Shown one piece after another: positions 3,073 to 7,559 of a stretch of DNA of 32,000 bases (its first letter is position 1; each line of letters begins with the position of its first letter). The position numbers and the translations under genes were made by a program. This DNA is from Erysipelotrichaceae bacterium. GTDB taxonomy: Bacteria > Bacillota_I > Bacilli_A > Erysipelotrichales > Erysipelotrichaceae. A model generated the notes under the pieces. That model saw only the letters and a program-made list of their open reading frames with translations, was not told the origin of the DNA and did not search any database. Where the stretch lies: contig OY781039.1 in NCBI GenBank assembly GCA_963676105.1, positions 1,830,001 to 1,862,000 on the forward strand, given 5' to 3'.

Positions 3073-4677
3073 CTATTCTAACTCAATTACTTGATCAAAA
3101 TTAATATGCTCGGATGCTAATAATGCATGGCTTATATAAATCAGGGTTAAATCTTTTTGTTCAAACAGCATTTTTTTAATTGCAAGAGAATTTTCTTTGT
3201 CTATTGCGTTATCTGCTTCATCGAAAAGAATTATTTGTTTTTTGAAAAGAAGTGCTCTTGCTATTGCGATACGTTGCTTTTCGCCATTTGATAGATTTTT
3301 ACCATCTTCACCAGATTGAATAGTTAAATCGTCTATATTTTTGACTAATGTGTTTAACTTAGATAGATTTGTTTGCTCTATTACATGATTTAATTCAAAG
3401 ATTTTGCCCAAAGTGATATTATCTAGAATTGTTGAATTAAATGTATATGAACTTTGATCAATATAAGCAAAAAGTTGATTTATCGTTGTTGATGTTAAAT
3501 CATTATAATTTGTTTCATCGAGAATAATATTTCCACGATAATTTTCTAATCTTTTCATAAGGATTTTTAATAAAGTTGTTTTCCCAGTTCCACTTGGAGC
3601 GATAATGGCGATTTTTTCACCCTTGTTAATCTTTAAATTTATATTCTTTAATAACTCTTTCGAGTCATCATATTGAAAATAAAGATGTTCAATAACTAAA
3701 TGATTTTTAAATTCAAATGCATTTGTATCTAATGTGTTGTGAATCGAATCAGTATTTGAAATTCTTGAAATCAAATGTTTTGTTGAATTAATCATCGGAA
3801 TAAGTTGAGCAAATTGACCTAAAGAGTTATAAAATAGTCCAGATAAATTACCAATTGTTATTATATAAATAGGATTTACAATACCTGTATATGAAAGATA
3901 AATGAATAATATTTGATTAGAGAATTGAATAACTATACTCAATAATTGAACTAATGAATTAGTAATTGTTTGAAATCTTGATAGCGCGAACTTTTTGTTT
4001 TCTAATTCATGACTTTCAAGATTAATATTATTAATCATTGAGTCAATAGCCGAATAGTTGTCCCATATTTCATAACCATAAAGATTACTCTTAACGTTAG
4101 TTGTAAACATACTTTGTTGCTTTGAAAAATTGGATGTTAATAGTTGTGTTTTTTTACTAAACAGACCTGGAAAAGTAATCATCAATATAAAAAATACTAT
4201 TGATGAAAGTGATAACCATAAGCTTAAGTAACTAATTGCAATAAATGAAAAAACTATAGATAAAAGGAAGTGTGTAGCATCAAATAAATTTCTATAGGTT
4301 TTTTGTTCAATCAATTGCGAATCATTTATAAGCCAAGATAAATATTCGCCTTTGTCTTCTTTTATAAAATCAGAATATTTCATATTTGAGACAGAACGTG
4401 CAATCAAATTCCTATAATTAAAATTCAATCGACTAATAATATATTCTTTTAAAGTGATTCTTAAATTTTCAATTAATATATAGGCAAACCACATCAATAG
4501 CACAGTTAATGTAACAGTCATCGTTAAATTAAATCCATTGAAGTTTATAAGTGAACCAATGATCTCAGCAGCTTTAAAATTAATATAAATATTTAATAGT
4601 ATTGAACAAATATCTAAAATAACAAAAGATAATATTTGATGAAACTTCCCTTGTGCAATCTTTATAAGATTTTTCAT
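3073..4677 (-). CDS. ABC exporter, fused transmembrane + ATP-binding domains (RiPP export/immunity candidate)
   Basis: N-terminal ~6 TM region; Walker A APSGTGKTT, signature LSNGEKQR, Walker B ILFDEADN; ATG overlaps TGA of upstream rSAM gene (ATGA). Confidence 0.85.
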   Translation of the reverse strand: MKNLIKIAQGKFHQILSFVILDICSILLNIYINFKAAEIIGSLINFNGFNLTMTVTLTVLLMWFAYILIENLRITLKEYIISRLNFNYRNLIARSVSNMKYSDFIKEDKGEYLSWLINDSQLIEQKTYRNLFDATHFLLSIVFSFIAISYLSLWLSLSSIVFFILMITFPGLFSKKTQLLTSNFSKQQSMFTTNVKSNLYGYEIWDNYSAIDSMINNINLESHELENKKFALSRFQTITNSLVQLLSIVIQFSNQILFIYLSYTGIVNPIYIITIGNLSGLFYNSLGQFAQLIPMINSTKHLISRISNTDSIHNTLDTNAFEFKNHLVIEHLYFQYDDSKELLKNINLKINKGEKIAIIAPSGTGKTTLLKILMKRLENYRGNIILDETNYNDLTSTTINQLFAYIDQSSYTFNSTILDNITLGKIFELNHVIEQTNLSKLNTLVKNIDDLTIQSGEDGKNLSNGEKQRIAIARALLFKKQIILFDEADNAIDKENSLAIKKMLFEQKDLTLIYISHALLASEHINFDQVIELE

Positions 4678-5921
4678 AATATATTCCTGCTTTCTTCTTT
4701 GGTGAACTCATTACAAAAATTAGTTCCAATAGCGTGTAGTGGACATGAGTGATGTGGACAGTACGCAAATTTTGCGCAATGAAAACAACTTTCAAACTTA
4801 ATAATTCGATACCAATTTTCATTCTTTGATTCATTAAAATCAAAGATATTTTTTGTACTGTTGTAGGTGCCCACAGTATTCTTAGAATCTTTTTGAGCAA
4901 CGGTACATTTTTGGATTAGACCATTTGGTGTAAAAGCGAAAGAATTCTTATAATTTGCATAACAAAATTTTTCATCTTTTTCTACAGTGTTAAATCCAAG
5001 CTTTATAAGATAATCAATATGATTAATGATTAATGCTTCTTTTTCATCTTTAGTAAAAATGGGAATATCTATATTTTTTGAACTCAATTGAGAGATAGGT
5101 CTAATGTTGAAAACTATTTGACTCTTGTTTTTTATGATATTCGATAAATTTTCATACCACTGAAAAGTATTATCTAATTTTCCAATATTTCTTCTTATCA
5201 TAATTAGATAATTGTCGTGTTTTGTTTGCTCTGTTATAGCGATAATATTATTGATAATTGTATTATATGTGTTCTCCCCATTTATAAGTTTTCTATATTT
5301 ATCATGGTTTGTTCCATCTAAGGTTATCTGAAATGATTTAACACCTGCATTTAATAGATTGTTAAAATTTTCAATATTAAGTAAATAACCATTTGTAGTC
5401 ATATTAGATCTAATATTGATGTTTTTGTATTTCTGCGTCAGTTTTGAACATTTTTTTGTAAAATTTAAAATCTCATCAATGTTTAATAATGGTTCACCGC
5501 CAAACCAGGAAATATTCAAATTCGAAATTTTTTCATTTAATAATTTATTTTCAATAAAATTGTATATAAAATCATAATCAAGTGATGTTAGTTGGTTATC
5601 TTCAAATTCTTCATAACAATAAACGCATCTAAAGTTGCAGTTTTGAGAAGTGTATAAAATAATATTTAAAATCTCATTATTCTTTTTATAAAATTCATCT
5701 GAAAATAGTTTAAACTCGTCCTTATTAAATAGAATGTCATTTTGATGTAAGAACGATTGCAATTCAGATTGTATACTTTCAGTTCCGTTACTTAAGATTC
5801 TTTTAAGTTCACTTATATATTCGTTATTTAACTGGACTTCAAGACCTGTTACAGTGTTTTTTAATTTAATTTTATTTGATGACTTATCGAACACGATAAA
5901 TCCAGGTATTATATATTTCAT
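4674..5921 (-). CDS. Radical SAM / SPASM-domain peptide maturase
   Basis: CNFRCVYC (CX3CX2C), GGEPLL, C-terminal CX13GX4C ... CX2CX5CX4C cysteine cluster; AGGAGG SD 3 nt upstream; ~85-aa N-terminal region before the cluster could be a peptide-recognition domain. Confidence 0.9.
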   Translation of the reverse strand: MKYIIPGFIVFDKSSNKIKLKNTVTGLEVQLNNEYISELKRILSNGTESIQSELQSFLHQNDILFNKDEFKLFSDEFYKKNNEILNIILYTSQNCNFRCVYCYEEFEDNQLTSLDYDFIYNFIENKLLNEKISNLNISWFGGEPLLNIDEILNFTKKCSKLTQKYKNINIRSNMTTNGYLLNIENFNNLLNAGVKSFQITLDGTNHDKYRKLINGENTYNTIINNIIAITEQTKHDNYLIMIRRNIGKLDNTFQWYENLSNIIKNKSQIVFNIRPISQLSSKNIDIPIFTKDEKEALIINHIDYLIKLGFNTVEKDEKFCYANYKNSFAFTPNGLIQKCTVAQKDSKNTVGTYNSTKNIFDFNESKNENWYRIIKFESCFHCAKFAYCPHHSCPLHAIGTNFCNEFTKEESRNIL

Positions 5922-5930
5922 TTTCCTCCT

Positions 5931-6109: not shown

Positions 6110-6211
6110 TTAGCACTCCCAAGTATAGCAAAACAATCTTGGTTTTATTTCGACAGTATTGATTCCTAGAATTAAGAAAAGCAAAGCACACGTTATTAAA
6201 TATTTTTTCAT
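6110..6211 (-). CDS. Short hydrophobic peptide, 33 aa: MKKYLITCALLFLILGINTVEIKPRLFCYTWEC (pheromone or second precursor candidate)
   Basis: Internal ATG of the 61-aa track ORF, preceded by AAGGAGGGGG SD; Lys-Lys N-terminus, hydrophobic core, Cys/aromatic tail; sits directly downstream of the regulator on the same strand. Confidence 0.65.
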   Translation of the reverse strand: MKKYLITCALLFLILGINTVEIKPRLFCYTWEC

Positions 6212-6320
6212 TTCCCCCTCCTTGGATTTATTATAAACAAGAATTTTTATATCCTTTAATTTTAATATTTTTTTTATAAAGCTAATTAAACTCAAATAAT
6301 TTAATTAATATTTTGAAATA

Positions 6321-7559
6321 TCATTCATCTTTTAGAAACTGATAAAGTAGTTTATAACTTTTAGATTTATTTGCGATTTCTAATATATGATTTTCGTAGA
6401 ATAAATAAGGTATGTTTTTATTTTTAATTCTTGCTATATCTGATTTCAAGTATTTAATCAAATAATTCGCTGCAATGTTTGAATCTTTTGAACTGTATAA
6501 TAGCTGAAAAAATTGATGCTGATGTTTGTAGTAATTAGAATATCCTTCGAGATACTTATAATTTTCTTCTAAATAATTTGTAACGCTTTCGATGTCTATG
6601 TCTTTCAAAATCTCCACTACAAATGCCATACTTAAAATTGATATTGAAGGATACAAATTTGCAGCTTCTATAAAGCAAGTAAGAGATTGCTTAAAATTAA
6701 CACGATAAAACTCAGATATGCCAAGAAGATGTAGAAATTTTGCCTTCTCAAAAATGGTAATTAATGTATTATCTATAAAAGTGTAATATGAATTAAAGTT
6801 ACTGCTATTTTCAATTCTTGTGATATTGATTTCTATTAATAGTTCTAATCTTTTTATTCGAAATAAAAATAAATCATTATGATTTGTAATTTTTATGAGA
6901 TCTAACTTTCTTATCGCTTTAATAAAGTCGCCGTTTCGTATTAAAATGATTGAATTTAATAAAATAGCAAGATCGTTTATCTCAGGTAATACTTTAGTTA
7001 GAAACTCGTTAATAAATCTACTTCTATAAGGTGAGATTTCCTGCGTCCAAATAACTATATCAAAAAGGATAATAATAGTGTTCATCGAAAATGCAGTTGA
7101 ACAACTAATGAGTCTTTCTAATAAATCTATATCTGGCAACTCATTATTTAAATAATATTTCATAGAGACATTAAGTAGAGTTAAAATCTGATAAAGATAA
7201 AAGACACTTTCAAATTTCTTTAAATAAATGGTTACTTCACTTTGTATTTCAATTAAATCAGAAGGTTTAAGATCTTGTTTTTGTAGGGTAAATAAATATT
7301 GTAAAACCAATTTTTTAATAGCATCATAATCTGCATTATTCTCTGAGAAAGTATATCCTAGTTTTTCGATAAGATGATGTAGAGTGTCGAGATAGTTAAC
7401 TGAGATTCCTTTTTCTATTCTTGAGAGTGTTCCTTGAGAACAAATTTCATAGTGTCCTTGCTTAATAAAATTGATTTGTGTAAAATTCTTATTACCTTTT
7501 CTTAATTTATATCTTCTCTCGCAACCTATTAAGATATTTATTAAATTGCTGTTTTCCAT
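6321..7559 (-). CDS. XRE-family HTH + helical-repeat (TPR-like) transcriptional regulator, RRNPP/Rgg-ComR-NprR-like
   Basis: N-terminal HTH (…CSQGTLSRIEKGISVNYLDTLHHLIEKLGY…) followed by ~340 aa of predicted all-helical repeats; start taken at the second ATG (GGGGG SD-like run upstream); the family assignment is by architecture only. Confidence 0.7.
   Translation of the reverse strand: MENSNLINILIGCERRYKLRKGNKNFTQINFIKQGHYEICSQGTLSRIEKGISVNYLDTLHHLIEKLGYTFSENNADYDAIKKLVLQYLFTLQKQDLKPSDLIEIQSEVTIYLKKFESVFYLYQILTLLNVSMKYYLNNELPDIDLLERLISCSTAFSMNTIIILFDIVIWTQEISPYRSRFINEFLTKVLPEINDLAILLNSIILIRNGDFIKAIRKLDLIKITNHNDLFLFRIKRLELLIEINITRIENSSNFNSYYTFIDNTLITIFEKAKFLHLLGISEFYRVNFKQSLTCFIEAANLYPSISILSMAFVVEILKDIDIESVTNYLEENYKYLEGYSNYYKHQHQFFQLLYSSKDSNIAANYLIKYLKSDIARIKNKNIPYLFYENHILEIANKSKSYKLLYQFLKDE

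Follow-up and report, generated by a model that had tools for sequence, protein, structure and literature searches.

A radical SAM peptide operon with an Asn-x-x-Cys precursor beside a probable peptide quorum-sensing cassette in an Erysipelotrichaceae bacterium

The 32,000-nucleotide stretch of an Erysipelotrichaceae bacterium analysed here (the window) carries on its minus strand a compact group of genes for a helix-turn-helix (HTH) regulator, two very small peptides, a radical S-adenosylmethionine (rSAM) enzyme and an ATP-binding cassette (ABC) exporter. The question raised by this group is whether it is a genuine locus for a ribosomally made and post-translationally modified peptide (RiPP) and, if so, what it makes and how it is controlled. 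An earlier annotation, which we call the sequence-only reading, had compared it with the streptococcal shp/rgg-controlled rSAM RiPP (RaS-RiPP) loci. We find that it is a real five-gene locus, whose 26-aa product is distantly related to the NxxC thioether peptides of streptococci and under another kind of control, and we consider it probable that it consists of two joined modules, a RaS-RiPP operon (precursor, enzyme and exporter) and a peptide quorum-sensing cassette. The locus is made up of the following features, in which SD stands for Shine-Dalgarno sequence, TMD for transmembrane domain and NBD for nucleotide-binding domain.

6321-7559 (6321-7571 with the alternative start), minus strand: regulator gene, 412 aa from an SD-led ATG at 7559 (416 aa if the start is at 7571)
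6214-6223, minus strand: SD AAGGAGGGGG of the 33-aa peptide gene, read from the sequence
6110-6211, minus strand: putative pro-pheromone gene, 33 aa, MKKYLITCALLFLILGINTVEIKPRLFCYTWEC; N-terminus signal-like, C-x4-C conserved at the C-terminus
5969-6049, minus strand: putative RiPP precursor gene, 26 aa, MLVTNEGITSYPTPRAWVNFFCGGFC, with the SD AAGGAG at 6055-6060 and the tail N19-x-x-C22-G-G-x-C26
5930-5964, minus strand: hairpin plus U5 (13-bp stem at 5935-5964) between the precursor and rSAM genes, from folding energy
5925-5930, minus strand: SD AGGAGG of the rSAM gene, 3' of the hairpin
4674-5921, minus strand: radical SAM/SPASM-type peptide maturase, 415 aa, PF04055
3073-4677, minus strand: fused TMD-NBD ABC exporter without a peptidase domain, 534 aa, PF00664 plus PF00005

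All five elements named in the sequence-only reading were found in the list of open reading frames (ORFs) and in the sequence itself, as one minus-strand cluster in which the regulator gene is followed after 110 nt by the 33-aa ORF and this, after another 60 nt, by the precursor ATG. The shp/rgg-like gene logic that it had proposed also held, since a pheromone-type regulator and a peptide gene adjoin an operon for a precursor, an rSAM/SPASM enzyme and an ABC exporter. The overlap of the rSAM TGA with the exporter ATG is visible as ATGA at 4674-4677, and the same arrangement occurs in the homologous locus L001 and in streptococcal loci.

The 26-aa SD-led ORF ends in VNFFCGGFC and has Asn19, Cys22 and Cys26 in this tail. 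SD-led ORFs were likewise found directly upstream of the rSAM homologue in L001 (MRLIDNGIDATVAIGYHANNVCGGGC) and in L004-L006 (MIIINKGNDKETINVVHNLLCGLHC), and the precursors of the window, L001 and L004-L006 share the end N-x-x-C-G-x-x-C. Precursor ORFs of this kind, 25-28 aa long, lie upstream at the three closest rSAM homologue loci and at the streptococcal relatives. In the tails compared (NFFCGGFC, NNVCGGGC, NLLCGLHC, NLVCGAGC and NLVCGGSC) the second Cys, four residues past the first, is conserved in every NxxCGxxC sequence. Remoter homologues, from Oscillospiraceae, Faecalibacterium and Erysipelotrichaceae, are accompanied by ORFs of 24-34 aa with an ME[VI][IVL] start and NIKC, NVVC, NIFC or NGKC inside, and a Geobacillus homologue by one of 37 aa whose leader differs and whose tail is NTNCGGC. 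When small ORFs were counted as SD-led, on the same strand, upstream of the rSAM gene and with N-x-x-C within the last 14 residues, they were present at 20 of 77 rSAM homologue loci; four control regions gave 1-3 of 67-77. The sequence-only reading would have given up its precursor if homologous loci never carried a similar small ORF; they do carry such ORFs. Because the closest rSAM homologues (37% identity) have similar SD-led ORFs, the 26-aa ORF is, as far as sequence comparison can tell, a real RiPP precursor and a new member of the NxxC motif type, with Asn19 and Cys22 as the predicted site of a Cys22-Asn19 thioether.

The rSAM protein matched PF04055 with E = 8.8e-20. The cysteine motifs, the GGEPLL sequence and the SPASM-type pattern described in the sequence-only reading are all present and proved invariant in an alignment with 17 relatives, which conserves C95-X3-C99-X2-C102, WFGGEPLL, C320-X13-G-X4-C339, C379-X2-C-X5-C-X4-C393 and C403, with ten invariant Cys in all. 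Of the other family models that this reading had suggested searching, Rgg_C was unmatched by the regulator and the Pfam SPASM model PF13186 left the enzyme unmatched even at E <= 10, the last Cys spacing being X4 rather than X3; a streptococcal NxxC-type enzyme (P0152) likewise lacks a Pfam SPASM match. What speaks for the tentative SPASM assignment is the Cys pattern, together with full-length alignment to NCBIfam models of rSAM/SPASM maturases. The best NCBIfam matches were all rSAM/SPASM peptide maturases (TIGR04463, CefB, geopeptide, FlmE/OhkG, Clo7bot, PapB and SCIFF), all of them far under their cutoffs (for TIGR04463, 123 bits against a cutoff of 525). The closest solved structure by sequence was CteB (5wgg, E = 2.4e-16). 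The enzyme is a near-orphan, its exact sequence having been found once and its nearest homologues being 37% identical. A sulfatase-maturase or cofactor-type rSAM enzyme, which the sequence-only reading had set against its own proposal, was rejected: the RiPP maturase models give the best family matches, far above the scores of anSME, MoaA and NirJ, and the precursors are conserved. On these alignments the enzyme is best placed as a RiPP maturase of a separate, deeply diverged clade.

Streptococci hold 16 Rgg-linked RaS-RiPP subfamilies, named by precursor motif (reviews; PMC13361665), and the NxxC subfamily is recorded from S. orisratti, S. porci and S. equi zooepidemicus (PMC13361665). NxxcB of S. 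orisratti forms a thioether from Cys23 to the beta-carbon of Asn20 (PMC8326336, PMC9389541; work of Bushin 2018 and Caruso 2019, as reviewed in PMC9389541, PMC8326336 and PMC13361665). Streptococcal homologues of the window enzyme were found in the genome scan. The S. mitis SK629 locus encodes an Rgg regulator (Rgg_C 8.1e-17), the precursor MVIQEIVEHDMEQDYGIEFNNLVCGAGC, a 431-aa rSAM enzyme and a 526-aa ABC exporter, and a relative in S. equi zooepidemicus, 70% identical to it, has the precursor MVVQEIREHDFDQELDLKFKNLVCGGSC. Their tails read ...NNLVCGAGC in S. mitis and ...KNLVCGGSC in S. equi zooepidemicus, and both Rgg-linked loci were assigned to the NxxC subfamily. The sequence-only reading had seen no named subfamily in the locus, which stands for the enzyme (27-29% identity, no specific clustering) and falls for the precursor, given its NxxC tail.

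The regulator proved harder to place. A word-indexed search returned one relative, 76% identical, and an exhaustive phmmer search of 1.8 billion representatives returned 13, mostly about 415 aa long. In the family alignment R19, Q32, S50, E53 and G55 are invariant and correspond to the XRE HTH signature (...Q..F......ICSQS.LSRIENG). Individual members gave only sub-threshold HTH_3 and TPR (tetratricopeptide repeat) matches (P0139, HTH_3 E = 0.012), and the family profile matched consensus TPR proteins at positions 278-306. An AlphaFold2 model built from an 11-sequence alignment was all-helical, with a mean predicted local distance difference test (pLDDT) score of 88.3 and a predicted TM-score (pTM) of 0.87; the input mattered, two sequences giving a pLDDT of 39.5. 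In Foldseek searches of the PDB most of the top-ranked matches were RRNPP receptors: near the top stood RapF-PhrF (TM 0.52/0.57), PlcR-PapR-DNA, phi3T Rap with pheromone (0.53/0.59), ComR-ComS-DNA, RapI and RapJ, and lower in the ranking NprR (TM 0.45/0.50) and Rgg2. By hhalign, the family aligned over its full length (366 columns, 93.6% probability) with the HTH_3 regulators of about 400 aa at the L001 and L005 rSAM operons, and with Rgg profiles over the N-terminal 133 columns only (probability 80%); the regulator beside the S. mitis enzyme matches Rgg_C, whereas the window regulator has no such match. Of the RRNPP-like architecture put forward in the sequence-only reading, the resemblance in fold thus stands, while the XRE HTH is read from signature residues and profile comparison, without a Pfam match. 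The model points to a diverged XRE-type HTH joined to a TPR-like superhelix, that is, to an RRNPP-like receptor of an undescribed small family.

Beside this regulator the window encodes the 33-aa peptide MKKYLITCALLFLILGINTVEIKPRLFCYTWEC, whose C-terminus is ...FCYTWEC. DNA next to a regulator homologue (25-38% identity) was available at four other loci. L095, with a regulator 38% identical to that of the window, encodes MKKIFLSLLLLLTLCSTPVNTYSVQVQCYTWNC (end ...VQCYTWNC), L096/L097 (32%) MKKVIIISILIFSNLIVFNVDNYKQATCILWEC (end ...ATCILWEC), L099 (25%) the divergently oriented MIQKIILVCLVLGLLIIPTPQPKQNSICLFDECG (end ...ICLFDECG) and L102 (25%) MRKLLTLIMILNILFVINVHPKPAIECLHFVCT (end ...IECLHFVCT). 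In the window and in the four further loci alike, the regulator thus has at its side an SD-led ORF that is 33-34 aa long, is basic and hydrophobic towards the N-terminus and closes with C-x4-C. No rSAM gene or window-type ABC exporter was seen near the regulator in those four, so that regulator and peptide form an autonomous two-gene cassette, which is probably a new RRNPP-type pheromone system. To our knowledge the characterised RRNPP pheromones are linear and have no Cys pair.

The link between this cassette and the RiPP operon is suggested by position and by two sister loci, L087 and L088, in which the regulator is 76% and the ABC exporter 82% identical to those of the window. There the precursor and rSAM genes are deleted (L087 1838-2112, and L088; the window counterpart is 4674-6320), with a junction at AGAAAG, a sequence shared by the precursor ribosome-binding region and the rSAM 3' end, and with the last ~15 nt of the rSAM ORF retained. 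The peptide gene of both loci has lost its SD and ATG in an 8-bp deletion and has a further 4-bp deletion in the part coding for C-x4-C. A bolder proposal, on which we place somewhat less than even confidence, is that the 412-aa regulator and its 33-aa partner are a new RRNPP-class quorum-sensing family with a Cys-x4-Cys signal, possibly disulfide-closed, and a portable cassette here wired to a diverged Asn-Cys thioether operon; this would be non-Rgg quorum-sensing control of RaS-RiPPs, beyond the streptococcal shp/rgg systems.

Several results count against taking the locus as a quorum-sensing-controlled source of an Asn-Cys thioether peptide, some of them concerning the chemistry and others the regulation. 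As to chemistry, the window enzyme scored 110-152 bits against the S. equi, S. mitis and S. suis clade, compared with 171-273 bits within its own clade, and it scored no higher against streptococcal NxxC-type enzymes than against unrelated Paenibacillus, Tumebacillus and Campylobacter SPASM proteins; similarity comparison gave no specific grouping of the window rSAM with NxxC-type enzymes. Since the enzyme is no closer to the streptococcal NxxC type than to many uncharacterised SPASM maturases, the two may have arrived at the NxxC motif by convergence and may differ in chemistry. QmpB, which belongs to the NxxC-type streptococcal clade, makes alpha-thioethers (PMC11851443). Moreover, the S. 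equi and S. mitis loci were equated with "NxxC" through the species list of the review and the motif, not through the S. orisratti NxxcA/NxxcB sequences.

The alternative that survives best is the same cluster with another product: an alpha-thioether (sactionine, cf. QmpB and GggB), or a link formed via the terminal Cys26 or via Trp or Phe. QmpB-type and NxxC-type enzymes are about 41% identical and yet differ in alpha versus beta regiochemistry (PMC11851443), the window enzyme is equidistant (110-170 bits) from the NxxC/QMP/NEF clade and from unrelated SPASM maturases, and the role of the second Cys, conserved in all NxxCGxxC tails, is still to be assigned. Against this, the window precursor has the N-x-x-C spacing of NxxcA and not the N-x-C of the QMP precursor, and N-x-x-C recurs across the wider enzyme family, in which aromatic residues are not conserved. 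We regard a different cross-link as unlikely and retain the NxxcB-type Cys22-Asn19 thioether as the predicted one.

As to regulation, Pfam and NCBIfam searches of the window regulator returned zero matches, HTH_3 and Rgg_C included, and the Foldseek E-values behind the RRNPP matches were weak (best 3.3e-3, none at or below 1e-3). The regulators of L001 and L005 have no convincing peptide gene next to them, inspection of five upstream regions by eye brought out no operator common to them, and no leader protease or immunity gene is present in the locus. The cassette could also control something else, because cassettes elsewhere stand without an rSAM gene and often beside a beta-glucosidase gene: the regulator lies directly 3' of a same-strand Glyco_hydro_1 gene in L087 (1-317), L096 (3426-4874), L097 (1172-2620) and L101 (179-250), and in L096-98 overall.

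That the cassette is a mere neighbour, acting on other genes such as those for sugar use via beta-glucosidase while the RiPP operon is controlled separately, appears improbable to us, and more so than a different cross-link. Neither an rSAM nor an ABC gene adjoins the cassettes of L095, L096-98, L099 and L102, and in the window cassette and operon lie between repeat copies able to have mediated a rearrangement. Yet the peptide gene, which shares its strand with the precursor gene, ends only 60 nt from the precursor ATG, and the interval holds no terminator-like site; the homologous rSAM operons of L001 and L005 are flanked by regulators remotely homologous to this one; in the sister locus the precursor, the rSAM gene and the start of the peptide gene were lost together; and RRNPP receptors usually act on adjacent genes (PMC10075063). 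Very improbable, finally, is that the 33-aa ORF is no pheromone gene (but encodes a second RiPP or bacteriocin-like product or a small membrane peptide, or is no gene), for although it has two Cys near its C-terminus like many bacteriocins, a middle part that could span a membrane and a Cys end in common with the precursor, the peptide in four further loci tracks the regulator and not a modifying enzyme or exporter, keeps its length, SD and C-x4-C end at 25-38% regulator identity, and in the window has a leader unlike that of the precursor. Two more specific roles for this ORF were tried and rejected: it is no lipoprotein signal peptide, as its LITC box is too near the N-terminus and not canonical, and no second rSAM substrate, as it is present without an rSAM gene in the four other loci.

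Taking the locus as a RaS-RiPP operon joined to a peptide quorum-sensing cassette, we infer the following course of events, in which the biochemical steps, the peptide processing, the regulatory link and the type of cross-link are all proposals. The 33-aa peptide would leave the cell and be cut down to a C-terminal piece that includes C-Y-T-W-E-C, which at high cell density would be taken up again and bind to the TPR domain of the 412-aa HTH regulator. This protein would then activate a promoter 5' of the peptide gene, giving positive feedback and a transcript that runs into the precursor gene; read-through into the precursor operon is proposed because a scan detected no terminator-like site between the peptide and precursor genes. 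A promoter scan performed no better than on shuffled sequence (44 found against 44.5 expected). The hairpin that the sequence-only reading had placed after the 26-aa ORF was confirmed as a 13-bp stem with U5 (folding free energy -19.4 kcal/mol, z = -6.77, with 0 of 200 shuffles folding equally well) and is probably a partial terminator that fixes the precursor-to-enzyme ratio: it would pass only part of the transcripts to the rSAM and ABC genes, leaving the precursor in excess of the enzyme. The 26-aa precursor would be recognised via its N-terminal leader (M-h-h-x-N/E...), and the rSAM/SPASM enzyme would abstract a hydrogen from Asn19 and join it to the Cys22 thiol held on an auxiliary Fe-S cluster, closing a small thioether macrocycle, in which the link may, if NxxcB is a guide, be a beta-thioether. 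The translationally coupled ABC exporter would secrete the product.

Just outside the low-GC stretch that holds the locus, the window encodes a MacB_PCD/FtsX-type ABC permease (721-1989, plus strand) and a small membrane protein resembling ferric reductases (2072-2608, plus strand). Permeases of the MacB_PCD/FtsX type are often tied to peptide-antibiotic efflux, and for this reason the one at 721-1989 is a possible candidate for an immunity function.

The low-GC stretch itself (24-28% GC over 3.0-9.5 kb, compared with mostly 30-39% in the rest of the window) is accompanied by three copies of a 173-nt repeat in direct orientation, 74-88% identical.

2622-2794, plus strand: 173-nt direct repeat copy 1, at the edge of the low-GC stretch on the ABC side
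7668-7840, plus strand: 173-nt direct repeat copy 2, just upstream of the regulator gene
9407-9579, plus strand: 173-nt direct repeat copy 3, from the repeat comparison within the window

Every copy has GGGTCACNNNNGGGTCAC at its 5' end, a TATAAT-like box, the invariant 22-mer AATCTCGGTGTCGGCACCATTT and the intrinsic terminator AAGACCCAATTTGGGTCTTTTT, so that the repeat resembles a gene for a small RNA or else a miniature mobile element. It had no match in Rfam, and no copy was found in the 100 compared loci or in viral contigs. Alone between copies 2 and 3, and as low in GC as the RiPP locus, lies a gene for an AAA_14 plus DUF4143 ATPase (8055-9350, plus strand; 431-aa ORF), a second repeat-flanked cassette between the RiPP cassette and the Glyco_hydro_1 gene. 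The latter, encoding a 6-phospho-beta-glucosidase, is at 9831-11303, 2.3 kb from the regulator-peptide cassette, which is inverted relative to it. The horizontal acquisition suggested in the sequence-only reading thus has real low GC and real flanking repeats behind it, but the adjacency to Glyco_hydro_1 elsewhere suggests local rearrangement and not a simple insertion. With the Glyco_hydro_1 gene 2.3 kb away, the cassette inverted and a repeat-flanked ATPase gene between them, the stretch fits the description of an accessory region that has been rearranged better than that of one clean insertion.

Each of the two modules has other neighbours elsewhere. In L102 (4439-6917) two genes come after those for the regulator and the C-x4-C peptide, a 143-aa ORF whose N-terminus is signal-like and one for an FtsX-like membrane protein of 675 aa; Pfam gave no lactococcin-972 match for the gene 3' of this cassette. 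Behind the closest rSAM homologue, in L004 (1475-3841) and L006, come genes with Lactococcin_972 and DUF1430 domains, so both modules recur beside other bacteriocin-type genes. Further along the window (16136-17707, plus strand) a cdaA...glmM housekeeping block includes a 523-aa homologue of the diadenylate cyclase CdaA (cyclase region 17-246) with a C-terminal low-complexity extension of ~250 aa rich in Lys, Glu and Ala, which accounts for the AT-skew spike at 17.0-17.5 kb.

Quorum-sensing-linked RaS-RiPPs are a known kind of system, and the Cys-pair pheromone cassette is the most original element of the locus. If such a pheromone is borne out, the cytoplasmic peptide receptors of Gram-positive bacteria would have a signal of a chemically new type. 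A rare regulator family found with its candidate signal (...FCYTWEC) and its putative target operon also means that a silent RiPP cluster could be turned on with a synthetic peptide. A single streptococcal enzyme has been characterised for the Asn-x-x-Cys type of precursor, and this type appears to accompany a wide and very diverged range of rSAM maturases, which would provide many candidate thioether-forming enzymes with relaxed sequence requirements.

Among known systems, CteB, the SCIFF/ranthipeptide maturase (PDB 5wgg/5why), is a thioether-forming rSAM enzyme with an N-terminal peptide-binding domain and a SPASM domain. Its alignment to the window enzyme is limited to residues 53-247, and its substrate, a 45-aa peptide with six Cys linked from Cys to the gamma position of Thr, is unlike that of the window.

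The RRNPP receptors (NprR/NprX, PlcR/PapR, Rap/Phr and ComR/ComS) have an HTH plus TPR architecture, and the window regulator is near NprR (about 420 aa) in size. They have, as in the window, a small adjacent gene, mostly immediately 3' on the same strand, for a signal-like propeptide conserved at its C-terminus. There is no sequence-level match between the window regulator and these families, and the conserved C-x4-C end of the peptide is a feature of the window family. A large computational survey proposed many novel RRNPP subfamilies together with 196 adjacent biosynthetic clusters, mostly RiPPs (PMC10075063).

In the shp/rgg-controlled RaS-RiPP loci (streptide strABC, tryglysin and streptosactin) a quorum-sensing peptide gene and a cytoplasmic receptor adjoin the precursor/rSAM/exporter operon and the peptide gene is co-oriented with the operon, both as in the window; the receptor family and the type of peptide differ. 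The cross-link of streptide is a Lys-Trp C-C bond, which differs from the link predicted here. At the S. suis QMP locus (L093) an SD-led 32-aa ORF, MKKAFFKSVFYLLLTIPIIIYPILPTSLTIFF, at 2216-2314 on the minus strand, is convergent with the rgg 3' end; it is a typical peptide of the SHP (short hydrophobic peptide) kind, in contrast to the C-x4-C peptides of the window family.

The QMP and NEF types belong to the same streptococcal clade as the NxxC type, their enzymes being about 40-41% identical to streptococcal NxxC-type enzymes, and their representatives are 29% identical to the window enzyme. Like the window precursor, those of the QMP and NEF types contain Asn and Cys in the core, and their leaders begin in a similar way, with M-[IV]-V-x-[NE]. 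The S. suis QMP-type precursor (...TNFCVNLCQMP) is encoded downstream of the enzyme, and S. marmotae carries the NEF type in the same enzyme clade. QmpB/suisactin is unlike the window in having its precursor gene 3' of the rSAM gene, the motif N-x-C and an alpha-thioether product.

The streptococcal NxxC subfamily remains the nearest term of comparison. The window regulator is not an Rgg protein (412 aa against about 285 aa, and no Rgg_C), the signalling peptide is not SHP-like, the ABC exporters are alignable in the ATPase domain only, and the window enzyme is 27-29% identical to NxxC-type enzymes (28-29% to those of S. equi and S. mitis), to which it shows no particular closeness. What the two have in common is the gene order of precursor, rSAM/SPASM enzyme and ABC exporter without a peptidase domain, with a regulator of the peptide-responsive HTH kind, in the window a predicted one, adjoining in both, and a precursor alike in length (about 26-28 aa), in its leader start and in its N-x-x-C-G-x-x-C end, in which Asn and Cys stand at 19 and 22 in the window and at 20 and 23 in NxxcA.

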